Source: Takakia lepidozioides (taxonomy: Eukaryota; Plantae; Bryophyta). Taken from it: DNA of 64,000 nucleotides. Location: positions 18,600,001 to 18,664,000 of the forward strand of contig CM060733.1 of assembly GCA_030704615.1 (NCBI GenBank), read 5' to 3'. The position numbers and the translations under genes were made by a program. This document shows positions 3,001 to 64,000 of this stretch, in pieces. Below the pieces are notes generated by a model. The model was not told where the DNA came from and did not search any database. It was given only the letters and a program-made list of their open reading frames with translations. Within the stretch, counting starts at the first letter, position 1. The number at the start of each line of letters is the position of its first letter.

Positions 3001-3127
3001 CCAAGTGCAGGTTGAGGTCCACACGCCCAGAGACCGAGGTTTCAGAGGGAGGGCCAGACATTTGGGGCCCTTGCTCTGTAGTACTCTGTGTGTCGTTCCC
3101 TGCCTGGGCTGCCATACCGCTAGACAT
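1..3127 (-). CDS. RING-HC E3 ubiquitin ligase, RMA/RNF5-like. Exons 3127-2443, 2123-1174 and 452-<1; the 3' end runs off the window.
   Basis: C3HC4 RING FECNICFQKANEAVVTCCGHLFCWPCLYRWLHVHSYHKECPVCKG followed by ITPIYGR and RIPPRPQARR, typical of RMA/RNF5. N-terminal DLNLHL motif. GT-AG junctions keep the frame (LTG|SVT; NPVQ|AAAW). Confidence 0.88.
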
Positions 3128-8100: not shown

Positions 8101-11100
8101 AAAGTTGGTAAACAGGGGTACAGGCACAATTCCCTTAATAGATTTGAAGAGAGCGTCTCTTTGGTGGGAGAACCCCGGACAGTGTATCAGAAAATGAATA
8201 CTGTCTTCAGATTGCCCACACAACGGGCAATTGCACTCTCAACGGGCAATTGCACTCTCCCTTTCCTCTCTGCTTCTGTTTGCTGTTCAAAGGTACGCTT
8301 CCTGCCCTGAGTTTAAATTCAAAAATAACAAAGAGAAGAAGACAAAGGGAAAAACAGAACACGAATTTTGGTAACCAAAGCTAGAGTAGTGTTGCTCCCA
8401 AAAGTCACAAGCTCCAGAGGTTCCTTTATGAACCCTCAAGTGGGCATCAGCTCTCCATATGCATGCTCAAGAAACACAGGGTCTCTAGATGTGTACCAAT
8501 TGAGAAGATATCAGTTGAGACACTTGAAAGAACTATTGAACAGGCAACCTTACCTCAAGGTACTTGAAAGTGGTAGCATCAGCAGGCACAATCCCGTTCT
8601 TCCCACCGGCCTCCACCACCATGTTACATAGTGTCATTCTGTCCTCCATCTGTGCAACTCAAGACAGAAACAAACTTGGTATATTGACAGTCGTGCAACT
8701 CCAGACAAGACTGTCAGAAGGGACCAACACGTTTGTAGAACTCACAGGGAATTCATCATACCCTTCATCACAAACCAGCAGGTGTTTATCATCTCTTTTA
8801 CAGAGACCAGTATACAGAAGGTACAAACCGTCATCTTGTCGACAGCTGAGCCAACAAACTCCATAGCTTTGTATGTGGCTCCAGCTACACTAATTTCACC
8901 TATAATCTGCAATTCCATGCCAGCATACACAATGTCTGTCAGGGCTTCTTTCCACACAAATGTTACTCCAGTATACTAGAGTTTACACCGTTGCAACTGA
9001 TGATTGTGAGGACATAATCTCTGCTTTTCACGCACAACAAATACTGAATGAAGAAGTTATAATTCAGACAGGTAGAAAAAATGGTGGGTTAAGCCACACA
9101 GCACCTGTAAAATCAGATCCTTGGCTAACAGATGCTTTGGCATCTCACCATCCAGTACAAATCTCAATGTAGGGGGCACCTGAAAGACATCGGAGTGGCA
9201 GTAAGTCCATTGATATCTCCAGACCTTTTTCACACAAACGCTCCAGCATTTTTTCAACAGCGCAAAAGAAGAAAGAAAGGAAGGTATTGCATCCACACCT
9301 GGCCGACAGGTTTCATTGTAAAAAGTAGAACCACAGGAGAGAACCAAAAAACACACATCAAAAGATGCTACTGTGGCTTGGAGGTGGAGTGCCTTATGAC
9401 CTGTCTCACCCAGGCAGAGTGAGAAAGAGGGGCACATGGTAGTCTGGTTGTGAATGAGACACACCAACCTTGATAAGAAGCTTGCCAGTGCCCATAATAA
9501 AGCCTGCATCAGTATTGCCAATACCAGTTGCAAACTGACCAAATGCCCCCGCAGTGCATGTATGTGAATCTGTGCCAAATAACACCTACATCCATTGAAC
9601 ACAAAATCATTATCAAAGTTTGATGTACTCATGCAATTGGATTTGGTGGGATAGATCTCACCAAATCCAATGGTCGACAGAAAACCTTGAGGGATAAACA
9701 CTGAAGGCAAGAAGCTCTGCACAGATGGGAGTCTCCTCAATCGTGTAAGTTGATGGCCTAAAACATTAAGACTCAGCAGACCACAGGTAGATATGAGGTT
9801 GGGATACAAAAAACGTCTTCCTCAGTGTTTTGTTTGCCATTAACCTGAGTCTAGTCATCAACTTCTGACACCAATAAGTTCTCGTCTCAGAAACGTTACT
9901 CAGGAGATCCTGTGATCTTGAAGGGATTCAAGCTGAAATTAACGGTAACCTTAGTTCCTGGCTTTTCTTCTTTTCTTGGCCTTGGAACTTACAAGCATAT
10001 AATTTATCTGAGAACCATGTCCTATGGGGGTCATAAGTCTGCCAGTACATGCATGATGAATGTATTGCTTTTAAAACACACAGATCGTAAAGAAGGCATG
10101 CATTTAATCTAGTTTTTCTTTAAAAGCCCCTAGCTGTATGCGTTACTTGGATTCTGCAATTGGATGCTGTTCTCAGTAACAAAGACAATGGAAGAGAAAC
10201 TAGTTGCAGAAAGTCCAATCCAACAACTTACAAACACACCTGGACCACAAAAAGGTATGGAGAAAACAGTGGTGGAGGAACTACCTCACCAGGACGGCAG
10301 TGGCCCTCTTGAGCAAGTGCCACATGGCACACTCCCTTATAATCTGGGTTTGCCTACACCATCCCTTGGACTGTCAAATACAAATGATGATACTCTATAA
10401 AGCAGTGCTAAGCTACTGCAGCAGCCTTACAGGATCCCTAGAGGGCCACTCTCTCTTCTCCTTCTCTTTGGACAGCCAATTGGTGGATTGCTCTCCCTAG
10501 ACTGAACCATTTTCATCAACATTGTAAAAGAGGTAAAAACCCAAATTTTCAATATGTGTAGATGCCCATGAGAACATACATACTCACTTCAGTGTAATCA
10601 GACTGTGATTGGCTGAGTGTGACCACAGGCAGTTTCAGCAAAGTTTCAAATACCCTGATGGAGGAAGGTTGTTACTTCCCCCCTGGGACAATGCTCTTAA
10701 GGGTACTCCATAGCCAACGTTTGCAAAAAACCGCTAATGAGTACACTTTTCTCTCATCCTCCATTCTTCTGTCCTTCTGATACGGTTCAGTCAGAGGGCG
10801 AAGGTGATAACATACCTTGAAGTCACTGAGGTCCGTGATGTCGTAGAAATACTTGATATTTTGCTCATGTGCAAACTCACGTAGAATGTCTACATTCCGA
10901 TTGGCCCGCGCATCAGCTGTGAAAATGTAATGGTCGGGAATCAGCACTACTTTTTCGCGATCCCATACCTGCACCATTACATGACACAATACTGTATGAG
11001 AATTCACTCACAACCAGGAACCACTCGAAGTGCATTAATCAACCATTGTTCCCCACATCTGACGACCCAAAAGGCCAACAATCCAATGTTGGAACCAAGT

Positions 11101-13997
11101 GTCTAGAAGAAACAAAGAACCAGACCCCGACGTGGTAAGAAAAGATAGTTCCCCTTCTGGAGCAAGTCTCTAGATCGTGGTCGGCCCTTCTACACTCTCT
11201 ACATTCCCCCCTTCCCTACTCCATTCACTCTGGCCACAGTACCATGGCAATGTCACATACATAAATCATCTCCATCTGCCTTTCTTTCTCAACGGCCTGC
11301 ACCCACGTATATGTTGCAAGCAAAGAGGGCTAGAGGAGTGGCGCTGGAATCAGCCACCGGATTTCTTGCATGATGCCAATCCAATCCATAAATCAATAGG
11401 CAGTTGGCACTGGCCAGTTGGATTGTTGGCAGTTGAGCACTGGCCACTACTACTATGGTAATTCCTGGTGGTTTGAAACCCAACCAGTGAAGTTTCTTCC
11501 TTTCTTTCTTTCACAAATTCCAGGTGTGGAATTTGCATGCATAAACCTTCAAACCAAGGCCATCTTCCGGCTTACAATCTTCCTTACAACATTACAAGTC
11601 CTTCCATCCAAACCAGGCCCTCACAACATCTATCAGGCTCAAGACCGCTGGTTTCAACACCTCCTGCTATGCTTGGGTGTCCAACTTTTTGAGCGTAACG
11701 AACTCTCTGTTGCTTCCCTACTTGGAAATTGCGTCCAAACAGGACCGCAGTAGATGCATAGACAAGAACTTACGGAACTTCACGTCAGGTGGAGATGGAA
11801 AGCAGGCAACCTTCAAACAAAACTGCAGTTCTATTGGGAGACAGTTCTATGGAGAGACATTCTTGGCCATCCGTAAGATAGAATCTTGTGGCCTGTCTGC
11901 AGCCCTCTCTCCCTATCTTCTAAGGGCAGTGGGGAGGTTCAGAGTGGGCTCCCACAGTCTGCGGATAGAGGCTGGTAGATGGCACAACCTGCAATGTGAA
12001 GACCATCTATATTCCGCTTGTGCTGGGACCAACAGGAATCGAAAGTGAAGAACGTTTTTTCTTTCACTACCCTTTCTACTATGAGAACAGTGGGAAATTC
12101 AATTGTCTGTTCTGTGATACCCAATCTCTCACGGAGGTCATTATGAGGATCAGAATGCTTGGCAGCTTACCTGCATGAGGCATTGACTCTTATACAACCC
12201 CTTGAGCAATAGTTGCTTTTGGGCTGGTTGTGGGGGGGCACTCTCTCTTTCGTTTTTCTTTATCTTGTCCCACAAAGCTTTGCATGGATGTTATAAAGTA
12301 GCATATCATTTCATTTCATATCTTTCTCTCCAGGCACATACGAAGTTTTTCTCTCCTTTCTTTCTCTTCTCTCTCTCTGCCTACCTGCTTGAGGCACTTC
12401 GCCTTTGGGTGACACTAATGTATTCTTGGTTTATTCTACCATGTCCCATGGGTCCTCAAGACCCTGTGTGGATGGTTCTTTCTTTCATTCTGTCTTTCTC
12501 TCCCAAATTGCTAAGCCTGTTGATGACATATCATCCTGGGAAGAAGTTGAAATCTCGCAGTTGTATATCAGAAGCCATGCCACTGATTGGCAACTTTGCT
12601 GGCACCAATATACATTCAAAAAATACATTGTGTTCCACTGAAGTTGATGGCACAAACCTTAGCATTCTCACCAAACTCCTTCTTGAAGATACCGAAGGTG
12701 CCAGGACCACAGACGTCATGAGTCATCAGTATGTCAGCCTTCACCCAAACGTTCTCCCCTGGAACCAACTTTGACTTCTCCGAGGCCTTTGCAAGAATTT
12801 TCTCTGTTGCTGTCATAGCATGTTTGACCTGTTCATACCAAAAAAGTCTCAAACACAGTTGCCAGCCATATGTTGCAGTATTACCTTGCCAAATGGGGTA
12901 ACCTTAGGTCTTCCCAATCTCTAAGTAACAGGTAACAAAGTGTCTGGTTGCGAGTGGCCATTATGAAACCCCGACACCTCATTGGAGGCAATGCCCCTAA
13001 TGGTCTAACTAGGCTTCTCTAGAGGCAAGTTAAGTTTTGCTACAGAAGGCCATCTCAAAATTCAAAATAACTCGCTTAGTCAAGTTAGCTGCAGCTCAAA
13101 CGAAACCAAGAGAACATTATTTGCATTGACTGTGTGACAACATGATCGAACTGAAATTTTGGATACTTAGAATTCTGCCGCTAAATGGGGTTCAAGTACC
13201 AACAGCGGATTCTAACTTCTGTGATGTTCACTATCCTCCCCCAAAGGACTGCAATTAGAAAACATCATAAGGGTCTAGAATGGATGAGAAGCTCACAGCT
13301 CCAGTAGAGGCAGGGGAGCGCTGCTGGGGTTGTGGAGGGGCCACGACAGCTCGCACTTGCAGGTGGTGCCGGGTTATAGGTGATCCACACTTGGGCACAC
13401 TGGCCACTCTACTCCCATAGAAGTCAGAACCCGACCTGGCCTGGCCTCCATCTCTCTGCACCAGAAGCAATTCAAGAGACACATTTTATCTCTGTATCTC
13501 TTGAGGATTCCCCTACAGGACTACTGCAAGCAAGTGTTATGAGTACATGAGGGAGAAACCTGACAGGCTCCAGGAGGGTTAGTATGCTGGGAGGACTAAC
13601 AACCAAAATAGCCCATAGCCCCATTCACAAGGAACAGTCAATGGTACACAGCTCCCTCCCACTCCACGACAACCCACAATTCCACTTCTAACTGCCCCTC
13701 TTTCTTGCCCCAACGAACACATAATGCTAAAGAGAAATATCATCTCAACACATTCACATTTCTTCTTTCATCTAATCTCATTTCCTACTTTACTCTCACT
13801 CTCACACGCTGTAATAAGTTTCTTCCTTTCTTTCTTCTCTCTCTCTCTCTCATCACGAGCTGATTTCACCACCATTCTCAGAGAAACATGCGAGTGCATT
13901 CAAGCATTTCAATCCACACAACCCATGATGAGGTACACACCACATGAGACCGCAGGCTTGGACCGCAAACGAAGTGAGGAACTGTGGCCGTGGCCAT
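5177..13997 (-). CDS. leuC: 3-isopropylmalate dehydratase (isomerase) large subunit, plastid-targeted, about 15 exons
   Basis: Exons encode [96 protein letters not shown] and [12 protein letters not shown]...[13 protein letters not shown]...DPREFL*. ATG at 13997 in gcagccATGG context, followed by a transit-peptide-like N-terminus. TAG at 5177-5179. Confidence 0.95.
7450..7522 (-). mobile_element. Very short 3'-end fragment of a non-LTR retrotransposon (same family as 7846-8260 and 37025-37410), in a leuC intron
   Basis: Shares tgtttgccgta.cctt.tggcca...cccagtttg and the tactcata flank with the two longer copies. Confidence 0.65.
7840..8260 (-). mobile_element. 5'-truncated LINE 3' end (C-terminal CCHC zinc finger, zf-RVT-like), in a leuC intron
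   Basis: Translation [24 protein letters not shown]...LEDIWKTR is typical of a LINE ORF2 C-terminus. A diverged second copy lies at 37 kb. A 19-bp tandem duplication (caacgggcaattgcactct) marks the truncation point. Confidence 0.75.
11540..12110 (+). mobile_element. Degenerate LINE ORF2 C-terminal fragment in a leuC intron
   Basis: [29 protein letters not shown]...[13 protein letters not shown] matches the RFRxGSHxLxIExGRW...E.E.HF...CP.Y tail of RTE/CR1-type ORF2. Confidence 0.7.
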
Positions 13998-34846: not shown

Positions 34847-36334
34847 TCAAAACCCACCTATGGTTCCAAACCTCTTCAAACGAATGACCTGCACTATCAG
34901 GTAGCCATTCAAACCAGCAATGATGACACTAATTATGTATGCGGCAATCCGTGCTGGCCAACCATTTCTGAAGCTGCCCATCTTGGCTCGAGAACTGGTG
35001 AAATGAACCAATGGAACCACAGCAAAGATGAGAGTGAAAGAGAGGATCACCTGACTCAACACTAGCAGTTTACCAGCACCCTTGTTTCCATAAATTGCAG
35101 CAACAGCACAGGCAGGGATCAGTGCAATCATCCGTGTGAGAAGCCGGCGAATCCAAGGCTTAAGACGTATCTGAAGGAAGCCCTCCATCACCACCTGCCC
35201 AGCCAAGGTCCCCACAATTGTGGAATTCTGACCAGTGGCTAATAACCCAATCCCAAACAAAATTTTTGCAGCCCGGCTTCCAAGTGCAGGTGACAGTAAC
35301 TGATAGGCATCACTGATGGTAGCAACATTGGGGTGTGCATTCGGACCATAATGGAATGCAGCTGCTGCCAGGATCAAAATAGCTGCATTCACAAAGAATG
35401 CAAACATGAGAGAGATGCCACTGTCCCACCTGCCGTACTTGACAGCCATCTTCTTACCTTCTATTGTGCGAGGGTAAGCCCGTGTCTGTATGATGCTTGA
35501 GTGGAGATAAATGCTGTGAGGCATGACAGTAGCGCCTAATATTCCAATTGCATCGAACAATATATCCGGGTTAGTGATAATCTCTGCCCGGGGAATGAAG
35601 CCTCCAGCAACCTTCAACCAATGAGGCTTCACAACAGCCAACTCATAAACGAACACTGTGGCTATGACTAGGCACAACAAGAAAACCAGTACTTCTAAGC
35701 AACGAAAATTTTTGACCCCAAACAGCAGGATGAACAGGACATCTGCGCCAGTGATGATAACCCCAGCCCACACCGGGATATTGAACAAGAGATAGAATGC
35801 TGTGGCTGAACCGATGACTTCTGCAAGATCTGTGGCCGCAATAGCAATCTCCGCCATGATCCAGAGGCCATACACCACCCACTTGGGATATGCATCACGG
35901 CATGCTTGTGCCAAATCCCTCTCTGCTACAACTCCCAGCTTCAGAGACAGTGACTGAATAAAAATGGCAGTGAAGTTTGAAACAAGGATAATGATCAACA
36001 GCTTGTAGCCATAAGATGCACCGCCGGTGAGGTCTGTCGCCCAATTGCCTGGATCCATATATGCTACACTGATGAGGAAACCTAGGCCTGCAAATGCAAA
36101 ATACTTCTGATACCACTTTCCAGCTAGATCTGGCACGTTCACGGAAGCATGAACTTCTTCCAAAGACGCTGTCTCGTTGACCCGGCGCCAGCCATTGAGT
36201 AAAGCTACTTTCTCTGGGGATACCTGAGCTTGAGGTTGGGCTTGTGCACGATCAAACTCCTCAACACTTTCAGTTGTCACCACCACCACTTGGCCTGGTG
36301 GAGGGGCCTCAAGGTTGAAGCTTGATATTGCCAT
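34847..36334 (-). CDS. NRAMP: NRAMP/MntH family divalent metal (Mn/Fe) transporter, intronless, resembling bacterial MntH
   Basis: Single 495-aa ORF with TM1 AYMDPGNWATD, TM6 GATVMPHSIYLHS, consensus transport motif GQNSTIVGTLAGQVVMEGFL and SQVILS. About 11 hydrophobic segments. Confidence 0.96.
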   Translation of the reverse strand: MAISSFNLEAPPPGQVVVVTTESVEEFDRAQAQPQAQVSPEKVALLNGWRRVNETASLEEVHASVNVPDLAGKWYQKYFAFAGLGFLISVAYMDPGNWATDLTGGASYGYKLLIIILVSNFTAIFIQSLSLKLGVVAERDLAQACRDAYPKWVVYGLWIMAEIAIAATDLAEVIGSATAFYLLFNIPVWAGVIITGADVLFILLFGVKNFRCLEVLVFLLCLVIATVFVYELAVVKPHWLKVAGGFIPRAEIITNPDILFDAIGILGATVMPHSIYLHSSIIQTRAYPRTIEGKKMAVKYGRWDSGISLMFAFFVNAAILILAAAAFHYGPNAHPNVATISDAYQLLSPALGSRAAKILFGIGLLATGQNSTIVGTLAGQVVMEGFLQIRLKPWIRRLLTRMIALIPACAVAAIYGNKGAGKLLVLSQVILSFTLIFAVVPLVHFTSSRAKMGSFRNGWPARIAAYIISVIIAGLNGYLIVQVIRLKRFGTIGGF

Positions 36335-37024
36335 GGTGGATAGGGTTCAGGCAATCCTGCCCAACCTGTCATGAGCAATACAATGTCAGCTAGTTTTACG
36401 GTATATTTATCAATGTGCATTGTCAGACGAACATGTGGAGCTAACAAAGTAGATAAAATTGGAGGCAGATTCTTTACTACACTTCCAAGCAAGTGGAAAG
36501 TCGGAGTCTTCACGAAATTGCTCTCCTCAAAATCCAAACATGTGCAATTCTTTGACTTCCTCAGAGATGACATGGAAGAGAGAGCCTTACTTCATCCCTC
36601 TCTTCTTTAAAAGTGTGAATTAGACAGATATTGCTGCACGGGTCTTCACCATGTTGCTGACACCGCACTCAACTAAGTCAGCCATCAAAGCCTAGCAAAT
36701 CATCCATGACAAGAGACCCAGCTAGCAGAATGCTTCGAGTTACAGACCTCACAGAGTCCAAATAACGTGTGCCCCTCAGCTTGGTGCCTTCAAGTTTGAA
36801 AGCAAATCAGCCCAAGAAAAGCTTTGTAGTCTCCAAGGATCATACATTCCCACTTGTGAGAAAAATAGCTGGAGAGAGGTTTTCCCAGGAAGATGCCATG
36901 GGCGAGGAGAAATCTTTTGAAGCGTGGACAATCCTTTCTGCACGGGAGCAATATAGCACCATCTGCTATCCGTCAAGCTGCAAGTACATCAAACAAGGAG
37001 AAAGATGCTTAAGGCCTGGAGAGA

Positions 37025-37410
37025 GAGAATGCACTCATAAGGCGCTGTTTGCCGTAGCCTTTTGGCCATAGACCCCACGCCCAGTTTGGGCGAACAAAAG
37101 GGAACAGATACTACCTTTGTGAGAAGCTCACTCGGGTAGTGTGACTTAAAGACAATTAGTTCAGGTTTTTCAGATATCCCCTTCACACAAGCATCAGTTT
37201 GCCATGCGTGACCTGCCCAGCAATTAGACGCCAACAGGGCCAAGGCTTTAGGCTCAGCCTCAAGATTTTCAAAGTTGGTGAACAGGGGTGTGGGGACGAT
37301 GTTCATGATGTTCCTGAAGAGGGTCACTCTCTGGTGAGAATATCCCGTACAATGTATCAGGAACTCGATATTATCGTCAGGCTGCCCGCACATCGGACAA
37401 TTACCATGGA
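37025..37410 (-). mobile_element. 5'-truncated LINE 3' end (same family as 7840-8260), upstream of NRAMP
   Basis: CPMCGQPDDNIEFLIHCTGYSHQRVTLF...NFENLEAEPKALALL aligns with the 8-kb copy and has the same 3' terminal sequence. Confidence 0.75.
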
Positions 37411-46891: not shown

Positions 46892-47600
46892 TGATACATA
46901 GTGGTGTCGTGCGCATACATATCGCTACACAACTACATCGCTGTCCAAAACCACACAACACATGTGCACACCACACACTAGTATACCACTAGTCCACCAC
47001 TAGTCTAACCACTAGTCCAACCACTAGGCTACAACTAGTCAGTCACTAGGCTGCCACTATGCTGCCCACTATGGTAGTCACTAGTCCACACAATGATAAA
47101 GAAGAAGGATACAAGCACGAGCTCACAAATCTGAAGCATAAACTCATGCATATATAACCTCATCACTCAAATACAAGTCAAGCCAAGTGCACCCCACGCC
47201 ATGGGGAATCCACACTACGGCGCCATAGCTAGGCGCGGTGGGGCTCAACTCGAGAAAGATGAGCCTTCCGCGCTTGCCGTAAAGATAACCACTCCAGGGC
47301 CTAAATCTGCCTTGACCCCTGGATTGACACTTGGGCCAATCCCAAATGTCAATATGTAAAAGCTAGCTATTTCCTAGCTAGTTTCACACTAGTGGTAAAA
47401 TAACTTGACAGCTGTCGTGCGCATACATATCGCTACACAACTACATCGCTGTCCAAAACCACACAACACATGTGCACACCACACACTAGTATACCACTAG
47501 TCCACCACTAGTCCAGCCACTAGTCCAACCACTAGGCTACAACTAGTCAGTCACTAGGCTGCCACTATGCTGCCCACTATGGCAGTCACTAGTCCACACA
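46892..47600 (-). mobile_element. 3' LTR of the Gypsy element, with an internal ~188-bp direct repeat
   Basis: On the minus strand, PPT AGGGGGGCG (~47603-47612) precedes TG at 47600. Near-identical blocks at 46905-47093 and 47413-47601. The candidate CA end at 46892 is less certain. Confidence 0.75.
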
Positions 47601-47860
47601 ATCGCCCCCCTAGCTAGTGCTTAGGTCCCTCTAAGTCCAGGTAGTCACAAGATGTGATAGTGACCATAGCCTCACTAAGTCCTCCACCACTATCCCTACT
47701 ACACTCAAACTCGATAGATCAAGAGGCCGGGTGCAAGAGTTGCCCCATCGTTAGTCGCCGTCTTGCAACATGTGAACTTGAGCTTGGGATCTCATGTATT
47801 GACTCCTATGAGCTTGGCCTCCCATGTCTTGTTAGCTGCCTCCAGTCATGTCCACTGCCA

Positions 47861-50800
47861 CTATCCCAAGCAGTGTGGACACAACCAATCTCCGTCAGGA
47901 ACCTTCTCAAGAGGTGGTGTCAAGCATCCCATATGCCAACCCCTTGAGCATCGATCACACACCAGCATGGTGGCTGCCCCTTTGGCAGACCCACAGAGCA
48001 TGCACCTCAAACCTGCAGGTACCACTGCCAAGTTTGGGTCAACTCTGCCATCGACATTGGGAAGGTGACATGGCGCACAATTACGCACATGGTCCTTCCA
48101 AGTCATGCCATCCCGACCCTCTAAGATCAGGACCCCTGAGGGCAACACCTCTCGAACCCTCAGAATAACACGCCCTGCAGTAACATCCAGAGTCGTAGGA
48201 GCAGTCTGCTGCAAATAAACATAGTCACCAGGGCTAAACCTCCGAACCCCAGGACGATATCCTCCACCACGTATAGTGGCATACCTCAACGTATCACAGT
48301 GCTGTGCAATGGCAAGGTCCATGGGCATGACTTTCTTGAACAACTCTGCACGCTGATCACATGCACGTACCCACACGTCCGGATCGTCAAGGTTAAGGAC
48401 TTGAGCAGTGTCCCTACGAATGGTTGCAGGCAAATCCGGCTCTCGGCCAAAGAGAAGGAAGGAGGCAAGTGATGCTTGTTTGCTGAACCTGTAGCCCATG
48501 CCTAACCAAGGAACCTGAAGATCCCAATCTCCTAGATGTCCCTTCTGCAAGCCATACTTGCGCAAACCCCTCTTCATCGTCTGAACAACTCTCTCTGCCA
48601 AGCCATCGGCCTCAGGATGATCCCGAGAAGTGGTGCGGTGGTCTATCAAGACTTTATCATACAAAGCCTGAAACTCCCCCAAGAACTCTCTCCCTTGGTC
48701 CGTGAGTACCTCAGCTGGAGCACCAAATCGGCTAAGCACACGATCCAAGAATGCATACGCAGCCCCCTCACTAGCCTTGTCAGGCAATGGAACCAACTCA
48801 ATCCACTTGGAGAAGTGCTCCACCATCACCAACACATATCTGTGGTGGCGCATAGTTAATGGCAACGGTCCTGCGAAGTCAAGACTCCACCTGTAGCCCA
48901 ATCCCATGATTGGTAAAGGATGCAACTGTGGTGTAGGGGCGTTGAATGAAGCACGCACCCTGTCACACACCATGCACCTAGCCACGAACTGTTGCACCTC
49001 TGTATGCATACCACGCCACCAATACTGCCCCTGCAGTAAACTGTGAGTGCGTCGCACTCCAAAATGCCCCAATTCCTCATGGGCATGCCGCACTTACCGT
49101 GCACGCTGTGTGGGGTGAGGCACAATCCTCACCCGACCATCCTCCCACACTCGAAGTAGGTGTATCCCCTCCCACTTGAACCTCTTGGCTCGTTGCAGGA
49201 TCCGATCCCTCTCCCTGGCAGTCACAGTGGCTGCCGTGTCTCCCGTGCGGAGGTAGTCCAACACAGCCGAATCCTCATGTATATCTCTGGCACCACCTGG
49301 CTCATCACTAGCCTCAGGGTCCTCAGACACTCCGTCTACAGTCATCCCTATTGTAGGTCCAACCTGACCTCCCGATGCCAAGATACACAAAAATACAGAT
49401 GCGTGCCATCCCGGCACCATCTCCTCGTCCGTCTCACCATGCCACCGAGCTCCTGTGTCATCCTGCTGGCTCATGCAGGGATTGCGACTCAATCCATCCA
49501 CATCCCGATTGACCAAACCTGGTCGATGCACAACCTGAAAGTCATACTCCTGGAGTATGAGTGCCCACCGTGCAAGCTTCCCCGTAAGCTTGTCTGACTC
49601 CATCAACCACTTGAGTGGTTGGTGATCCGTGACAAGGGTGAAAAGATTGCCGTATAGATAGCACCTGAAGTGTGCCACGGCCCACACTGCAGCTAAGCAC
49701 TCTCCCTCATATGAGCTGTACTTAGCCTCTGCAGCGTTGTTCGAGCGGCTAGCATAAGCCACTACGAACTCTCTTCCCTCATCATCCACCTGTGTGAGCA
49801 CCGCTCCAAGCCCCAGCATGCTCCAATCCGTATGCAACTAAAAGGGACGCCCCCTGATAGGTCGTCTCAGGATAGGCGCCGAGGTCAACCTCGCCTTGAG
49901 CTCTTGAAAAGCTCGTTCCTGCTCATCTTCCCACTGCCACTCCTGGTCCACCTTGGTCAGCTTGGTTAGAGCCTTTGCAATGGTACTAAATCCCTTGACA
50001 AACCGTCTATAATAGTTTGCCAACCCCATGAAAGCTCAAACTCGGCTCACATCCGTGGGGCGTGGAATTTGTGCAATGGCCTCTACCTTAGTCTGCTGTA
50101 CCCCCAATCCTCCAGGATATATCATGTGATCCAGATACTCAATCTGGTTGTGGAAAAACTTGCACTTCCCCGGATGCAACTTCAATCCGTGCGCTCTCAA
50201 GCGCTCCAATACCACTTGAAGGTGTCTCTCATGCTCATCCATCGTAACACTAAAGATGATGATGTCATCTATGTAGCACCGAACAAAGTCCACCCCTGCT
50301 AGAATCCTATCCATGACTCTCTGAAACTTTGCAGGAGCATTCTTAAGCCCAAATGGTAAGAACCGCCACTGATATAGGCAATCCTTGCCGTGCTCATTGA
50401 TCCCCCAGAATGCCGTCTTCTGCTTGTCCGCCTCCTTGATTAACAACTGGTGATATCCGGATCGTAAATCCAAAGTGCTAAAGGCCTTAGCATGCCCGAT
50501 GGCATCAAAGATTTCCTCTGGTGTTGGCATGGCATACTTATCGGACTTGGTCTGATGATTTACAGGCCGGTAATCACCGCACATACGTCTCTCCGTCCAA
50601 TTGCCATAGACATCCTTCTTGGCTGGCATCACTGTGGCTGAAGCATACTCTCCACCAGAGAGCTCCACCAAACCTGCCTCCCAGAGATCTTGAGTCCTCA
50701 TCTGAATCAAAGACCTCTCCATGTCACTGTATCTATAGGGTCTCCGAAAGATTGGCGTGTCAGTGGCCAACTCAATACGGATCTCTTGACCCTTCAGTGC

Positions 50801-51590
50801 TCCCAAGTCCTTCAAACTGAAGGCAAAGCAATTCCTGTAAGCCCTCAGGAACCGCCGTATACGTCGTCTCTCTCCTCCGGTGACAATGGGTCCAATGTCA
50901 GGCTCCCAATTGTCCTCCGTAACTACAACCTTAAGTCCAGTGGGCTTAGAGGTAGAGGACGCGTCCAGTGGTTGTTATGTTGCAACCTCTTGAGCAGTAC
51001 TCCGTGCCTGCTCAGTCAATGACAAGGCCTCATCCTGCCCCATCATCTCATCCTTGAGGACCTCCTCAACCCGAGAAGAATCCCCAACCTCATCCATCAC
51101 AGCCGCCTTGGCTGCCAACTCCCTCTGAACCTCGAGCACCTCCCACGTGTGCCATGGATGCATGCACCCTGTGGTCCTCACATGCTCGCCCCCACTCACT
51201 GCCTGTACCGTCTCGGTAGGCAGAGAGACCATTGAGGGAAGTGTACTCTGCACTCTGCGTTGCTCAGCCAGAGCCAAGCTGATAATCCAGGTCAAGCAAT
51301 TGAGATCCATTGCTTGCCCCAACACTTGATGACGTGATGCCTCAGAAAGAGACGACACTGCGTGGTACCAGTGGTAAAACCCATTGCCCGCTCACGCTCG
51401 TCAGCATTAGGCTCCACTAACTGCTGCAACTGAGCATCCCACAGGAGGCCAGGTCCACTATCCCGGAAAGCATGCGATCCTGGGAAGCTGAGCAGTGTAG
51501 GTAATGCTGCTCGTGGTTGACCCACCTTGTTGACCACTGCCAAAGGCAAATGGTCATCATGTCTCACACGCTGAGACTGCCTCCCTGTGT
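47861..51590 (-). mobile_element. Ty3/Gypsy LTR retrotransposon pol, 5'-truncated pseudogene: C5-MTase C-terminus, RT, RNase H, integrase, PHD finger
   Basis: RT: RMCGDYRPVN, LDLRSGYHQ, LPFGLKNAP, YIDD. RNase H: HTDWS, EGECLAAVWAV, TDHQPL. Integrase: HEELGH...CMVC, WSLDFAGP, LTDQGREF, DGLAERV. PHD C4HC3 at the end. ORFs 51358-50975, 50815-50036, 50029-49838, 49837-49094 and 49093-47861 all share one frame, broken only by single stop codons. Confidence 0.95.
51255..51590 (-). pseudogene. C-terminal fragment of a DNA (cytosine-5) methyltransferase domain inside the Gypsy polyprotein
   Basis: Repairing a 1-nt frameshift at ~51361 gives EPNADERERAMGFTTGTTAVSSLSEASRHQVLGQAMDLNCLTWII. This has the layout of C5-MTase motifs IX and X (compare DNMT3 [31 protein letters not shown]). 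Confidence 0.72.
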
Positions 51591-51620
51591 AAGGAACAAA
51601 AAACACAATGAATCATTTAC

Positions 51621-52860
51621 CTTCCATTGTCTAGTCTCCGACTTCATTGTGTGATCGTTGTACTTTTTCGGCCTCCCCCTTAGCTCGAAGAAATTCCGGG
51701 GATGTGCAACTTTCTCGGGGAATGTTGTGTCAAATTTTTGCGCCTTATTCGGGTCGTTTAGGAGCTTAGATAGCTTCACGAGCTTCATCAGATCCTTTGA
51801 CCATATAATCTTTGAGGACCAGTCAGAGTAATATTTCTTACGATTATCGTCGTCCACGTCTTGCACAAGTTTCTGCGACAGAATTGAATAAGGTTAGAAA
51901 TGTTAGTGACCTAACAAACATGTTGTTTAATGTTCAAGCATGTTCAAGCATGTTGTTACAAAAATTGGACTTTGTGGAGAAATTTACCTTGGCAACAATG
52001 ATGGTGTGTTGTCCACCGATGACGAAGAATCTGGACTTTTTCACCTCCTTCCAGTTTCGAAGTTTCGAACTGGAAACCTCCATAGGCTTCTCGGGGTTTG
52101 CGGGAGTCAAATAAACTAGATGTTTGGAGTCGAACACCCGGAGCTGGTAAAGACGCGCTTTGACTTTGTCTTTGTGCTTAACATTTAGGGGCCTGTATAC
52201 CATATCCTTGGGAGCAAGCTCCATCATGGAAACTTTGACGTCTTGGGTCATCTCAAACCCAAAGAAACATGTTATTGTAGTCTTGCTCCAGCCTCTCCTG
52301 CATCTTCTCACACTTCTCTTTGTCGAAGATGTCTGCAGCCTTGGGTTTCTTGTTATCTGTCATGAAAGCGGGATCCATCTCCTCCTTTTGTTTCTTCTTT
52401 CCCCCCGATGTCCCGGCTTCATTCTCATCACCTCCGGCGTCAGTGGATTTCCGTTTTCCCTTTCTTGGCCGCACTCTCGCAGCCTCTTCCTCCCGCGTCT
52501 TTGCAATCTCCTTACCCTTTAAGTAAAGCACATCCAAGAAAATACCCCAAGCCATGCAAAGACCTGCATCTGTAAATTGAGTACCGTCGTCGCAATATGT
52601 GAACCCCGCCCAGATGGACTCTCTCATCATGGCCTTCCTTAGAAGTCGTACCTCCAGTTTGAAGCCAAACGTTCTGGGAAATCTATCATCTTCCATCGTG
52701 AAAATGACCAGCATTGGAAATTCCACATCCATCTCCAGCTTTATGTCGACAACATCTGCATATTTGAGCTCGGCGACCTCTGCACCAATCTTGTAGTGGA
52801 ACTGGAACTTATGGTCCGAAGGTGTTCTAACGGGGACAATGCCCCATTCTGCGTTTTCCG
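51621..52860 (-). pseudogene. Truncated, frameshifted intron-containing gene of unknown, probably TE-associated family with a ParB/DGQHR-like motif
   Basis: Overlapping ORFs 52732-52253 and 52311-51934, phase-0 intron 51987-51873, then exon 51872-51621. Motif YRPLN...LVYLTP...FFVIGGQHTIIVAK. Basic NLS-like RPRKGKRK. Confidence 0.5.
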
Positions 52861-53532
52861 GGTTGAGCTAAAAAATTCTTCCTCTGTGGGCAGTTCGTCA
52901 GCGGCACTCGCTGAAGGGTAGGTGCCCTACATGTCATTGATGAAATTTAACTACCTTATACCTCTGCTTGCCTTTGAAGACACCTGAACATAAAACATTG
53001 TTTGCATACTTGTAAATTTAATTTTCAATCTGCTATTTCGTCGAGGGTTGTGCGTAGCATCGAGCGGCGAAGCCCTAGTTGATATGAATTTTCTTTACAT
53101 TTTCCTTCAAGACAAACCAAAATTTGACAAGTTTGACTCCACGGTCATAGACTCAGGCATTTCAGGGTTAACTTAGAGCATGTATAGCAGCACACTGAAT
53201 TTGATTTCTGGTCAAACCAATTTGAGCTTGCTTTGGGGGTCAAAGAATTGAAGGCCCTCCATATATTGTACATTTTGAGAGTCCTCAATACATCCCGGGA
53301 AGTTTAATCTTAGGTGGATTCTTGGAGTGGTGGCACAGAGTGGCACATACGGTGACTTGTGAGTGGTTCACCAATAATATACCGGGTATGAAAGGTGTTT
53401 GTTACTGGGTTTGTCACCTCCCTGCAGTGAATAGTTCAGGGTTGTAATCAGGGAGGTCGGTCATATGACGGATGATCTCAAGGACTGCAGGGTGCGCCCG
53501 GCTTGACGGAATTGTGGGGAGATTTTGGAAGC

Positions 53533-54957
53533 ATGAAGAAGTCAGGCCAGAAAGGGAAGAGAAAGGTGTCCGAAGCAGAGAATACTACTGTTGCCAAACG
53601 AACCAGAGAAGAGGGGGCAGAGGCTCCTTACGGTATCCCGGTATGTGTTCTAGTCTCTGGATTTTTATTGGTTTTGCTTTCACTCGCATGGGTTAGGTTC
53701 TTCAGAAGGAAGTGACAAGGTTTTGTGTTTGTTCTTCCAGGAAGGGTACTTGGAGATATGTTACAAACACGCTGACGACACAGTTGAGGTTGTGAAGCAG
53801 TCGTTTCATCTACCTTCCAAGCTTCTGATGAACTGTGAAGATCTGATTGGTGTTGGACTTGTTTTGAAACAAGTATGTGGAGGATTAAGCCATGTTCGTG
53901 ATTTAGGGTTTTGTTCCAGTACCTTGAGCAACATATTGCAGATGACCAGGATTTCCTGCAGCACCTTGGAGAGTCAAATAGGACGTCTCCCGTTCGAATC
54001 ATTTGCCGGCCTCCCGTTGTTGGTGTTGTAGCTTTGGACTCAAATAAGACACCAAAGAAATCTGACCTGGCAGAGAGGTATCGGGAATTTGCTCCTCCTC
54101 GATGACTCCGAAGAATGTGCATAGGGTTCAGAAACCTAAAGATCCTGAGAAGGGTCCCCTTTATCGATGTAGTCGTCCTGCTGATGCTGTAGGTCTTCTT
54201 GAAGCGCCTTTGATGCATCCCGCTTTCGGAACTTTCTTGGACAATTTGCGTGATGCATCCTTGCCAACAAGGGAGGATTATGCCTTTGTGAAAGAGTTCT
54301 GCGATACGAGCTCCGAGTTTTTACTCGACCGAGCTTGACCGAGCTTGAGCGTCAGATCGCAATTGCAGCGTTGTTGGTTCCATACTTGATCAGGAAAGTT
54401 GCTAGGCGTAAGATTGGGGCATTTGAAGTGGATGGATATATTGGCAGTGACACGTGCTTTCCAGTTTATGCGATACTAGAGGTGGAGAATGAGCTGGGCC
54501 AACAAATGCTGACAAATTTTTCCAGGGCCAGACTTGCTATGCTCTATTCTGTGATTATGCGCGATCCAGCAGCACGGAGTCGGCTAAGAAAGCTTTCGCA
54601 GCATGCAATTGCCCGATGTACCTAGTAGAATTTCGAGGTCCTCAGATGAGAGTCAGTGCGATGGCCTACTTCGGCCGAGCGCATACCAGTATGCTCACAG
54701 ATTTGGTCAATTTGTCCTACACAAATGAAAGCTTGCCCAATATTTTCAGGGCCTTGAAGCTGGGCATAGACAGTTTGGCATTATTCTACGCACAGATCGA
54801 GGAAGCAGGAAGAACATCTGCACGGCAGGAATGGTTGGGAAGTAAGGCGGTGCCGTACCCAGTTTGGTGGAATCCAAAGTTTAGGGTTTTGACGTCAAAT
54901 TCATTGACTTTGACTGGGCAGGCCAGGAGTCTGTGTGGACTTATCCGCCGAACATGA
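53533..54957 (+). pseudogene. Crinkler-type (fungal-like) PD-(D/E)xK nuclease-domain gene, frameshifted. Exons 53533-53640, 53741-53872, 53920 onward.
   Basis: Reconstruction: RP...PLMHPAFGTFLD...PTREDYAFVKEFC...ELERQ...EVDGYIG...ILEVENELG.TNADKFFQGQTCY...CPMYLVEFRGP...LTDLVNL...FRALKLGIDSLALFY. Frameshifts near 54102, 54335 (10-bp tandem duplication) and 54498. Confidence 0.62.
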
Positions 54958-55142
54958 ACCACGCAACTATCGCTTGGCCCGAAGGCGTGGCTGATGGGAA
55001 GCCCATGCTGCAGAGACACGACACTGACGTTCTTTCAAACCCAACAAAAACATCAACTTATGATTGGAGGATGTTTGTTAGACGAAGGCAATGTACGAAA
55101 GAGCTTCCAGTAGCTCCTTGTAGAGGGTCAGAACTGTAATTC

Positions 55143-62655: not shown

Positions 62656-63400
62656 TCATTGATCTGTAATCGGGGGGCCTGCAACAAGAGAAAGCATGCT
62701 GCAGAAACGTCGAAACTTATCAGGTACCAGCGCCTTGGTGAGTATGTCTGCAACTTGATCATTCGTATTGATGTACACAACTCGAATGAATCCACGATGC
62801 TGGAAGTCTCTCACTATGTGGTATTGTATATCAATGTGCTTGGTTCTGCGATGGTACTCTGGATTGAGTATGAGCTTTATCGCACTTTGATTGTCTCCAT
62901 GAAGTTGAGTTGGTTCTTGCCTGAGAAGTTGTCTCAACCATACAACCTCTTTGCTAGTAACGCACGCTGCAATATACTCCGCCTCCATGGTAGAACCTGC
63001 CACACATTGTTGTTTTCGACTTACCCAAGTCACGGGTCCACCATTGAGAAAAACCAAGCACCCACTGCGAGATTTACGGTCATCTCCAGCGTAGTCCGCA
63101 TCTGCAAATGCGGTGAGTATGTTGTTGCAGTCTCCAGCAAAGTAACAGAGTTTGTAATGCACTGTACCCTTCAGATACTTCATAATCCGCCGAACAGCAT
63201 TACAATGAACATGCTTTGGCTTGGTAGAAAACTTTGCCACACAATAGAGTAATCTATATCCACTGCAATCATCTTTGAAAGATACAAAATAAAAGGCTCC
63301 CCCAAGCGAGGCAACACTCATGGGACCACACAAGTCAGAGTGATAAAATTGACTAGGCTTTTCAGCTTTCTTTCTATCTGGGCCCTCGATGGCCTGTGTG
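62656..63400 (-). mobile_element. Ty1/Copia pol remnant with an internal deletion (integrase N-core fused in frame to RT C-terminus and RNase H)
   Basis: HSDLCGPM...YFVSFKDDCSGY (integrase), then AVRRIMKYLKGT, ADADYAGD.RKSRSG, SRKQQCVAGSTMEAEYIA, DNQSAI, RTKHIDIQYH, QVADILTKAL. Confidence 0.92.
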
Positions 63401-63519
63401 TTGAGCAGTAGGCTCAGTAAATTCACTGGACGTTAAAGAAACTTTATCTTTATCTTTATCCTTTATCTTTGTTCTATCTTTGATTCAGCTTCAACCAGCA
63501 GGAAATTGAGATTGTGAAA

Positions 63520-64000
63520 TCATACCGGTACCTGGGTATGGTTATCCACTCCCCCAAGTTTCACTTTGCAGCCACTGCCCTGGACAGATTGACTAAAGGT
63601 AAGGCGGCCTCCGTCCGCCTTCAGGCCAAATGCAAGCAAATACATCTGCGTCATCCCCCAACCAAAAAGTGGCTGTTTGACACCGTCGTCAGCCCTGCTA
63701 CCATCTATGGTTGTGAGTTCTGGGCACCTGGCGTCCCTGTCTCCTGGTGGGAAAAGAATTTGGAACCATTCCAGTCATCTTTTCTCCAAGCAATGCTTGG
63801 CGCCAGGAGCACAACTCCATCTCAGATCCTAGGTGCAGAGTTCGCATGTGTACCATTGCAATCCGAGGCCCTCTTCCGGCTTACAATCTTTCTCCATAGA
63901 TTACAGGCCCTTCCACCCAAGGGGCTCGTGGCAAGGGCCCTCACATGTACAACATCTATGAGGCTCAAAGCTGCAGGTTTCAGGAACTCCTGGTATGCTC
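63520..64000 (+). mobile_element. LINE (RTE-like) ORF2 fragment, RT thumb region, running off the window
   Basis: YRYLG...KKWLFDTVVSPATIYGCEFWAP...LEPFQSSFLQAMLGARSTTPSQILGAEF matches the YxYLG...LFxxxVxPxxxYGxExW pattern of non-LTR RTs. Confidence 0.75.

Follow-up and report, generated by a model that had tools for sequence, protein, structure and literature searches.

Does a retrotransposon of a land plant encode its own cytosine DNA methyltransferase (DNMT), and if so, how might the enzyme be made and what might it act on? The question was raised by an initial annotation of a 64-kb window (the whole stretch of DNA analysed here), which placed a Gypsy element with part of such a domain at positions 47,861 to 51,590. 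A Gypsy element does lie there, and positions 46,905-51,590 of the minus strand hold the 3′ portion of a Ty3/Gypsy element, decayed and present in many copies, from what is probably a moss; 47,861 is only the end of its PHD finger (PF00628), and the 3′ end reaches 46,905 through a repeat block of the form B-A-B that had been overlooked (Table 1). The order protease (PR), reverse transcriptase (RT), RNase H (RH) and integrase (INT), the last of the DDE type, is that of Ty3/Gypsy elements and is seen in the relatives, the window copy keeping it from RT onwards; the relatives also have TGTCA...GACA termini, a polypurine tract (PPT) with a G6 run and 4-bp target-site duplications (TSDs). Standard LTRs were not found: the 5′ end consists of A only and the 3′ end of B-A-B, with no two matching LTRs each bounded by PPT- and PBS-defined ends, and on sequence evidence the repeat plan is a permuted variant of the canonical Ty3/Gypsy plan. 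No match to the tyrosine recombinase family was found in the window or in the ORFs of loci L081 and L076. The stop at 49,840 is missing from most sister contigs, and compared with some of these contigs the integrase region lacks two short in-frame segments, near 48,318 and 48,457. Past 51,590, the loose ends of 31 (X1) and 15 (X3) sister contigs enter DNMT sequence resembling protein P0001, and summed contig depth, which is not equivalent to copy number, drops about 200-fold at this point. No gag or PR matches were found elsewhere within the 64-kb window. The window copy adjoins another repeat. Since it lacks the 5′ end, it has no TSD of its own to test; the full-length plan and the TSDs described below were drawn from relatives and sequencing-run contigs rather than from the exact window subfamily.

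Table 1. Features of the retrotransposon copy in the window and the basis of each assignment.
Feature	Position	Strand	Basis or remark
5′ truncation point	51590..51591	.	repeat A1, leader, gag, protease and DNMT motifs I-VIII absent from window copy
C-terminal third of DNMT3-type C5-cytosine methyltransferase domain (target-recognition region, motifs IX and X)	51266..51590	-	family profile; frameshift near 51,361
Variable linker, C-terminal tail of ORF1 (Gag-PR-DNMT)	50978..51265	-	linker lengths in relatives
Conserved in-frame stop, then CAA-CCA; predicted type I readthrough signal	50969..50977	-	stop codon 50,977-50,975
Reverse transcriptase (YIDD)	50036..50974	-	PF00078 E 9e-31; piece ends at in-frame stop absent from most sister contigs
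RT connection and RNase H	49094..50035	-	PF17917 E 4e-34; in-frame stops 49,840-49,838 and 49,096-49,094
Integrase (HHCC, D-D-E core intact) and C-terminal PHD finger	47861..49093	-	PF17921, PF00665, PF00628
Polypurine tract AGGGGGGCGA directly before B1	47602..47611	-	sequence; same G6-CGA tract before B1 in relatives
Repeat B1, 189 bp, ending CGACA	47413..47601	-	98.4% identical to B2, three transitions
Palindromic B1/A2 junction GACA-GC-TGTC, inferred att site	47407..47416	.	right and left integration ends fused internally
Repeat A2, 317 bp, TGTC...TCA, predicted U3-R-U5 part	47094..47410	-	A repeated at 5′ end of full-length relatives
Repeat B2, 3′ end of element (GACA)	46905..47093	-	copy of B1

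The claim of a cytosine methyltransferase domain was borne out. The peptides that had been quoted for a motif IX/X signature are present on the minus strand, with ERERAMGF (motif IX) at 51,399-51,376 and R-x-x-x-LGQAMD (motif X) at 51,334-51,305, separated by a change of frame near 51,361 that is absent from most sister contigs. A family profile built from 73 natural family domains matched the two unjoined window pieces (E-values of 2e-34 and 1.5e-9) and had no further match in the window, and the relatives carry the full domain. A Pfam search with the two pieces and a PDB search with the upstream piece gave no match; the upstream piece found 55 of 135 candidate proteins at E≤1e-3 when used as a query, and the domain part left in the window matches P0001 at 93%. 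The proposed check against PF00145 had a divided outcome, because the window pieces score nothing, while 16 of 26 relatives tested pass the cut-off and the best Pfam stretches in relatives span only the N-terminal half of the domain, the half lost from the window copy. It had also been supposed that motifs I-VIII were lost by 5′ truncation, and full-length members indeed have LDLFGGISTG (motif I), AGWPCQG (IV), ENV (VI) and HRxR (VIII) upstream of the window-equivalent piece, and the 31 and 15 sister contigs, which come from the same organism, run on into the DNMT past 51,590. Of the 73 family domains, the motif IV Cys was kept in 72, the ENV Glu in all 73 and the motif VIII Arg in 71-72. Motifs I, IV (PC), VI, VIII, IX and X of the family are in the unrearranged order of the DNMT3 type, the window copy keeping IX and X only, and ERERAMGF and RRQLIG of L037 align to EMERVFGF and RQRLLG of DNMT3A. 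Profile comparison gave E-values of 4e-25 for DNMT3A, 9e-11 for DRM and 3e-7 for HaeIII. A structural model of the L037 domain (pLDDT 94.9) had human DNMT3A as its top fold match (E 9e-20, TM 0.74), and 30 of the 30 fold matches listed were DNMT3. DNMT3A/B are the best matches by sequence, by profile and by the fold of the predicted model. dN/dS of the DNMT was 0.16 and 0.09 between lineages and about 0.9 for a pair of sister insertions, the latter reflecting decay once inserted; this set excludes the second window piece and the RT rows with L003, whose RT alignment is degraded. At the sequence level, these data show a DNMT3-type domain under purifying selection between protease and RT.

The position between gag/protease and RT, claimed from the window alone, is also the domain order of full-length relatives. 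The order Gag-PR-DNMT-RT-RH-INT-PHD was found in Marchantia, Calypogeia, Riccia, Sphagnum and metagenomes, and Marchantia polymorpha has members of the lineage, among them gene models Mp_4g09160 and Mp_8g17980. The DNMT takes a different position in L076, and in a sister clade (31 sequences) it lies between RNase H and integrase. Since many loci represent near-copies of one another or one and the same insertion, the sample size at the level of lineages is about five or six. None of 6 pattern matches in viral contigs was a relative, and in prokaryote genomes 1 of 150 was, a eukaryotic contaminant.

The initial annotation assigned the DNMT to the pol frame, which it saw continuing past one TAA upstream of RT. 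The frame is the same as that of RT, but the stop is a family feature and not damage, kept in frame in 57 of 58 relative loci, and the DNMT upstream of it belongs to the Gag-PR ORF and not to Pol proper. The codon is TAA in the window and TAG in most sister copies; CAR follows in 56 of 58 loci, and CAR-YY likewise in 56. A stop occurs at this site in 53 of 54 loci, whereas no neighbouring codon has one in more than 10 of 54. Since the in-frame stop and CAR-YY recur in relatives, the DNMT ends the Gag-protease ORF; its end lies 79-116 codons before the stop in relatives of five lineages, and many ORF1 proteins terminate 73-117 aa past the DNMT. The full hexamer CAR-YYA is found in the window and in 7 of 58 loci representing four lineages, and CAA-CCC, one base off CAR-YYA, in the 45 loci of the largest subfamily. 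In L081 the single stop in the entire coding frame lies between PR-DNMT and RT-RH-INT-PHD. Stop-bearing elements form one RT clade together with Marchantia rows (SH-aLRT 99) in trees that were quick searches with SH-aLRT support only and from which multi-RT proteins, RT matches shorter than 200 aa and DNMT-less RTs of less than 42% identity were excluded; the stop-less P0081, P0318 and L076 are sister lineages. Three apparent Marchantia DNMT-RT fusions (P0010, P0058 and P0072) lack the linker, and we take them to be gene models in which splicing was drawn so as to bypass the stop. The type I readthrough motif is UAG-CAR-YYA, and it also works with UAA (PMC3542737). Quite probably, ribosomes would mostly halt at UAG-CAR-YY, so that, in molar terms, far more Gag, protease and DNMT would be produced and packaged than RT and integrase. 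The conserved stop suggests that the DNMT is likely made at coat-protein levels.

Window-family contigs pass from the left end of A at 47,410 into unrelated DNA, and 34 X1 contigs exit the right end of B into flanks of low agreement (0.36). The palindrome GACA-GC-TGTC is exact in L004, L007, L056, L076 and L081, differs by one or two transitions in L032, L072, L041 and L059, and is thus common even to L076 despite the different position of its DNMT. B-A-B is seen in the window and the full plan A-coding-B-A-B in L056 and L041. Of eight two-ended loci, six had exact 4-bp TSDs (AAGG, TCTC, TACA, TACA, TGTG and CACA) and the other two matched at 3 of 4 positions. A|B junctions abut the PBS and PPT boundaries exactly; at this junction 9 nt of the PBS remain in L047 and 20 nt are inserted in L041, traces of the kind that end-joining would produce. 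None of 18 5′ ends, representing at most 16 distinct insertions, starts with A-B-A, the arrangement expected from a cut at the other B|A palindrome of a 2-LTR circle. One site was seen both as B-only (L021) and as B-A-B (L059), which indicates that short repeats can collapse and weakens the idea that A-coding-B copies derive from one-LTR circles.

The PBS looks self-priming. Its complement within A spans 16 nt in L051 and L053/L056 and 12 nt in L081, 26-29 nt below a TATA-like box, the transcript start being a predicted one. Among 18 A1 copies, a perfect complement of at least 9 nt was present in 7 (in one of them elsewhere in A), one of 6-7 nt in 2, and none in 9; L076 had no PBS complement. 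In A2 of the window, ATCTTTCTCGAG at 47,260-47,249 is the predicted transcript start and self-primer, and is identical to the self-priming partner of L081 at 10 of 12 positions. No TATA was found at the matching place in the window A, and the A1-to-PBS junction of the window subfamily was not among the 20 loose ends listed (of which there are 173 more). RNA would quite probably start within repeat A and prime itself in the manner of Tf1 on the PBS right after A1. Because the PPT precedes B and the PBS follows A, reverse transcription would necessarily yield a linear [B-A]-coding-[B-A]. Its ends would then join, forming the A2|B2 junction, and integrase would cut the palindrome CA^GC^TG inside the 5′ repeat, leaving two CA-3′ ends with 2-nt overhangs; an insertion made with these ends would have the A-coding-B-A-B plan and the 4-bp TSD that are observed. 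Cleavage of palindromic LTR-LTR junctions is documented for retroviral integrases (PMC1180852, PMC4372172). We infer that the permuted plan, the 4-bp TSDs and the internal GACA-GC-TGTC best fit an integrase cutting a cDNA circle, and we give this route, from linear cDNA through end joining to the CA^GC^TG cut, about an even chance.

Alternative explanations should be weighed for each of these steps. For LTR elements generally, it is the link to Gag that packages RT and integrase. Instead of being read through, the stop could simply end ORF1, with RT-integrase made from spliced or internally initiated mRNA or by reinitiation; the largest subfamily departs from CAR-YYA and has an in-frame ATG three codons past the stop (CAA-CCC-ATG). 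We think this rather improbable, as there is no such ATG in the lineages of the window, L037, L065, L069 and L081, neither frame continuity nor CAR-YY would be needed although both are kept in all lineages, and RT and integrase would lose their Gag link for packaging. Integration of linear DNA is unlikely, though it deserves more credit: extra template switches or unusual plus-strand priming, for example by B2 RNA, could make a linear A-coding-B-A-B whose ends are processed normally. On this view, no further assumption is needed for all 5′ ends to begin with A (B lies upstream in 0 of 18), whereas a 2-LTR circle has two B|A palindromes and the circle model therefore needs an unexplained bias; the TGTCA...GACA ends with two spare bases also resemble ordinary integrase ends. 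It does not readily account for a strong PPT before B1, and not before A, in all lineages seen, for an A2|B2 junction that joins exactly the PBS- and PPT-defined ends, sometimes imprecisely (L041, L047), or for an internal palindrome conserved across distant lineages. Finally, a host DNMT3 fragment might be nested by chance, the tandem LTRs being a product of unequal recombination or misassembly. Truncation of the window copy beside another repeat and collapse at the L021/L059 site would fit this, but the same order and frame occur in dozens of loci and in named proteins from four bryophyte genera, TSDs bracket A...B, and the repeat plan recurs in an element described from Klebsormidium (PMC5890265). 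Recurring domain order, conserved junctions, TSDs and the conserved stop refute this artefact, which we regard as extremely improbable.

As for the function of the DNMT, the packaged enzyme would methylate new cDNA in the particle, so that copies would arrive pre-marked; we hold this at slightly below an even chance. The CpG ratio was 0.48 in the element and 0.45 in the rest of the window, an equal depletion, and CpG and CHG ratios do not tell methylation by the element from methylation by the host. In yeast, no methylation by the Klebsormidium domain was seen, in a test that its authors call inconclusive (PMC5890265). It is possible, at roughly one chance in three, that the DNMT is active with a main target other than cDNA, such as the insertion site or host chromatin, or that it is a non-catalytic nucleic-acid-binding module. 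The absence of a CpG signature above background is consistent with this, the PHD finger on the integrase points to chromatin reading, and the sister-clade position between RNase H and integrase suits delivery with integrase; on the other hand, catalytic residues are almost invariant, and a DNMT encoded before the stop, together with Gag, would be plentiful inside the particle and not tied to integrase. Circle intermediates are a feature of IS3-family elements. A bolder and doubtful extension is that a streptophyte-wide Gypsy clade gave up linear-end integration, self-primes and circularises, that its DDE integrase opens the internal att palindrome in an IS3-like manner, and that a DNMT3, packed at Gag level because it is encoded upstream of a leaky stop, shields the spare att site of the 3′ repeat from the element's own integrase. 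That spare site is CAGCTG, beside a conserved CpG. If true, such shielding, resembling restriction-modification, would explain single-junction cutting and the retention of captured DNMT3s. Returning to the readings we prefer, we somewhat favour the overall view that the window holds a dead, 5′-truncated copy of a bryophyte Ty3/Gypsy lineage with a Gag-protease-DNMT3 ORF1, pol likely made by readthrough, and likely self-methylation of cDNA and circle integration.

A Gypsy-DNMT3 element, KnitGypsy-Dnmt3, is known from Klebsormidium nitens (de Mendoza et al. 2018, PMC5890265). It shares with the window family the Gypsy domains, an unrearranged DNMT3 with conserved catalytic residues, purifying selection and a DIRS-like A-coding-B-A-B plan, but is described as having its DNMT in one ORF with RT and RNase H, which a conserved stop separates in the window family (57 of 58 loci). 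The host of the latter is a land plant, where the family is very abundant. The available part of that paper's text does not mention readthrough, self-priming, TSDs or an att palindrome and does not propose how the element replicates. The relatives found here include no protein under the name of K. nitens, and the likeness is by description. DIRS/Ngaro elements, split-direct-repeat retrotransposons with a tyrosine recombinase, some of which carry DNMT3 (e.g. SymbioDIRS-Dnmt3; PMC5890265), share the A-coding-B-A-B plan and an internal copy of the end junction, whereas the window lineage has a DDE integrase, a PPT, 4-bp TSDs and a Gypsy RT. Tf1/Sushi and plant Tcn1 elements have, like the one predicted here, a PBS that would pair with the 5′ end of the element's own RNA rather than with a tRNA, as well as non-seed plant hosts, yet they have ordinary paired LTRs and a chromodomain, compared with a PHD finger and DNMT here (PMC7175516, PMC6317226, PMC2864245). 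Assignment to Tcn1/Phygy by published features (PMC6317226) failed, as PHD replaces the chromodomain and TSDs are not NCGN; 'PHD' and 'methyltransferase' do not occur in the main text of that REXdb survey. As in tobamovirus type I readthrough (PMC3542737), stop and CAR-YY(A) lie in frame between two protein blocks, although here the predicted signal follows protease and DNMT rather than gag alone, and in the largest subfamily C takes the place of A as the sixth base. The 2-LTR circle junctions of foamy virus and HIV-1 have a similar palindromic CA-nn-TG, which integrase cuts into two processed ends, as is predicted here (PMC1180852, PMC4372172); the retroviral junction consists of ligated cDNA ends and serves an accessory route, whereas the site predicted here lies inside the repeat, distinct from the ligated junction, and would be obligate.

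We found no published description of the land-plant Gypsy-DNMT lineage, its stop or its integration route in a search that leaves most subscription journals and Repbase uncovered. PMC12344493 and bioRxiv 10.64898/2026.05.21.726589 name 'streptophytes', and their supplementary trees may already include bryophyte copies. In bryophyte genomes, ORF1 of these elements is annotated as host 'DNA methyltransferase' genes, and LTR finders requiring two matching LTRs should miss or mis-bound the elements. If permuted repeats and TSDs reflect circle integration, the lineage would offer a natural example in which integration must take this route, one that has long been under debate in retroviruses. Since 2018 it has been an open question why a retrotransposon would keep a silencing enzyme. 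The conserved stop predicts DNMT at Gag stoichiometry and so points to action inside the particle, and the question is directly testable because the lineage occurs in a genetic model for which methylation mutants exist, Marchantia polymorpha.

From 51,590 to 47,861 on the minus strand, the window carries a DNMT-like piece, a linker, a single in-frame stop, RT, RNase H, integrase and a PHD finger, and the peptides, frameshift and stop quoted in the initial annotation were all found in place. This Gypsy-DNMT feature is real. Its assignment to the methylase profile PF00145 held for relatives, 16 of 26 tested passing the cut-off, and failed for the window itself, neither of whose DNMT pieces matched Pfam; a sequence search of PDB with the upstream piece returned no match either. 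A profile built from 73 natural domains hit the unjoined window pieces with E-values of 2e-34 and 1.5e-9. Among 135 candidates, 55 relatives of the upstream piece were found, named from Marchantia, Calypogeia, Riccia and Sphagnum, plus two EukProt 'SM' ids that we take to be Spirogloea.

Sequencing-run contigs of the same organism (55,853 of run X1 aligned to the region) reached a summed depth of ~10^6 within 46.9-51.5 kb, compared to 3,000-11,000 outside, which marks the family as very abundant, although depth is not a copy number. At 51,590, 31 contigs of X1 and 15 of a second run, X3, continue into DNMT sequence like that of the near protein relative P0001, so the 5′ truncation, which had been held responsible for the loss of the upstream DNMT, is private to the window copy. 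Contig comparison showed the frameshift to be private as well, along with at least two other stops in pol, and the copy is dead. Its first and last B repeats (B1, B2) show 3 differences in 189 bases.

Scanning for relatives yielded 80 loci out of 253 pattern matches in metagenomes and 1 out of 150 in genomes, the long loci having the order Gag-PR-DNMT-RT-RH-INT-PHD. The motifs sought upstream of the truncation exist in these relatives: over 73 domains, the motif IV Cys was conserved in 72, the ENV Glu in 73, and the motif VIII arginines in 71 and 72. Between lineages, dN/dS of the DNMT domain was 0.16 and 0.09; the upstream window piece gave pN of 0.16-0.20 with saturated pS, and two sister insertions gave dN/dS of ~0.9, as expected of post-insertion decay. 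DNMT3A was the best PDB match of one family domain by sequence (E 1e-11) and of the domain profile (4e-25, followed by DRM at 9e-11 and HaeIII at 3e-7), and the predicted structure of the domain from locus L037 (pLDDT 94.9) matched its fold with TM 0.74. The DNMT3-like reading of the C-terminal piece is borne out, with methylating activity a prediction. Marchantia and Sphagnum gene models P0005, P0008, P0012, P0050 and P0071 are ORF1 (Gag-PR-DNMT) of such elements, some with the UniRef name DNA (cytosine-5)-methyltransferase, and models of this kind could inflate counts of host DNMTs.

In 58 loci that span the stretch from the end of DNMT to the start of RT, the homologous codon was a stop in 57 (43 TAG, 14 TAA; one TAC instead), followed by CAA or CAG in 56. 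Of 54 loci anchorable on the junction, 53 had this stop, compared to 10 for the most decay-prone neighbouring codon. It was kept in five lineages despite unrelated linkers of 79, 93, 110, 116 and 90-95 codons, in the contexts TAG-CAA-CCC, -CAA-CCA/CTA, -CAG-TTA, -(TAG)-CCA and -CAA-TCA; CAA-CCA follows it in the window, and in L081, a complete unit, it is the only stop in the whole coding frame. UAG-CAR-YYA is the tobamovirus readthrough motif, in which UAA also works, according to the text available of PMC3542737. We infer that DNMT and protease would be made at Gag level, and RT and integrase via readthrough. Against this count the C at the sixth place in the largest subfamily (45 of 58 loci), unlike the tobamovirus motif, and an ATG three codons past the stop in that subfamily. 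Stop-bearing elements formed one RT clade (SH-aLRT 99) with two Marchantia rows and protein P0242. In sister lineages, DNMT either runs into RT with no intervening stop or is located between RNase H and integrase.

Past the PHD stop, the window has a PPT, B1 (189 bp), GC, repeat A (317 bp) and B2, and a second A lies at the 5′ end in full-length relatives L056, L041 and L004. Integrated ends are A on the left (TGTCA) and B on the right (GACA). Eight two-ended loci showed TSDs, exact 4-bp in six and with 3 of 4 bases matching in two; in the source organism, 34 contigs exit the right end of B into diverse flanks and several exit the left end of A at 47,410. The junction of B1 and the 3′ A (A2) reads GACA-GC-TGTC, a palindrome, in the window and in L004, L007, L056, L076 and L081; four further loci depart from it by one or two transitions. 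A CpG at the right end (CGACA) is retained in four distant lineages though CpG is mutable, with TGTCA at the left end (window 47,413-47,419; junctions of L004, L076 and L081); integrase or methylase constraint may possibly lie behind it.

The sequence right after the 5′ A (A1) is complementary to part of A itself, located 26-29 nt downstream of a TATA-like box. The match extends over 16 nt in L051 and L053/L056 and over 12 nt in L081; four loci have 9-10 nt and two have 6-7 nt, whereas it was absent from nine old copies and from L076. This layout of a putative PBS is that of Tf1 self-priming as described in the available part of PMC7175516. The 3′ ends were B-only in 10 loci (three rearranged), B-A-B in 6 and cut by the contig end in 2; B-only ends are probably secondary, because a single site was found in both forms (L021 and L059).

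With a PPT ahead of B and a PBS behind A, ordinary reverse transcription would yield [B-A]-coding-[B-A]. The genomic A-coding-B-A-B is a circular permutation of this, which would arise if the right end of A joined the left end of B and the 5′ B-A palindrome then opened; a staggered cut behind each CA would leave overhangs of 2 nt, exactly as at processed ends. Retroviral integrases can cut palindromic LTR-LTR junctions, according to the accessible text of PMC1180852 and PMC4372172. We give integration from such a cDNA circle an even chance, whereas a linear route involving additional template switches seems unlikely. The A2-B2 junction adjoins both primer boundaries; L047 retains 9 nt of PBS there and L041 has 20 nt inserted, as expected of end-joining and contrary to the linear route. 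However, the circle holds two palindromes, yet none of 18 5′ ends begins A-B-A (a count that omits three loci cut inside A and one whose A is displaced), which is the weak point of the circle and speaks for the linear route. The role we favour for DNMT, methylating cDNA inside the particle, we rate a little short of even; base composition gave no support for or against it.

L081 (CADCWO010000201.1, 1-9,285) is circularly assembled inside a cyanobacterial metagenome-assembled genome, almost surely as eukaryotic contamination, and could be mistaken for a bacterial DNMT or RT. The sister clade with DNMT between RNase H and integrase comprised 31 sequences in one group (SH-aLRT 80; L076, proteins P0053 and P0083-P0113). 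The L076 contig is circular, and its frame of ~3,700 codons is apparently free of stops; since it shares the palindromic junction despite its other DNMT position, the domain seems to have changed place in the course of the lineage's history.

Other features of the window are listed below. The multi-exon region had no match in Pfam or PDB; its FVIGGQH motif presumably resembles ParB-like domains, and one of its introns extends into the retroelement, ending at a chance AG. The NRAMP gene grouped with Sphagnum, Ceratodon and Physcomitrium in a clade of 12 rows (SH-aLRT 99, in a quick tree without named hornwort or lycophyte rows), which makes a moss the probable host. Three of the fragmented ORF pieces had no Pfam match; the VKFIDFDWAG motif, in a piece other than these three, we assume to be kinase-like.

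Features of the window outside the Gypsy-DNMT element
Feature	Position	Strand	Remarks
Multi-exon coding region	51,591-52,900	-	Adjoins truncation point; repetitive, summed depth 3,000-10,000
Intronless NRAMP gene	34,850-36,334	-	Algal/bryophyte group near bacterial MntH; 58-60% to bacterial proteins
Dispersed repeats	7,400-8,240; 11,500-12,050; 37,000-37,400; 62,660-64,000		By eye, translations resemble tails of LINE RT and the remnant of a Copia RT/RNase H
Fragmented ORFs	54,060-55,140	+	VKFIDFDWAG motif in one piece

DNMT capture by Gypsy is already known from an alga. KnitGypsy-Dnmt3 of Klebsormidium shares the DNMT class and repeat plan of the window lineage, as compared by text description, but places DNMT in the RT ORF, whereas here a stop separates the two; in the portion of PMC5890265 available, yeast activity of its domain was not found and the main text gives no replication model. 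In the open-access literature, as far as its text was available, land-plant copies are not described, although 'streptophytes' in two later papers may include bryophyte ones; nor does it describe readthrough at the DNMT/RT stop, or integrase-bearing elements whose repeats are split or permuted as here, and neither PHD nor methyltransferase occurs in the accessible text of the REXdb survey. What appears to be new is the bryophyte spread, the placement of DNMT on the Gag side of a conserved stop of leaky type, and the putative self-priming, permuted-repeat anatomy with TSDs. We believe this provides a concrete model of Gypsy-DNMT replication, open to testing in Marchantia.
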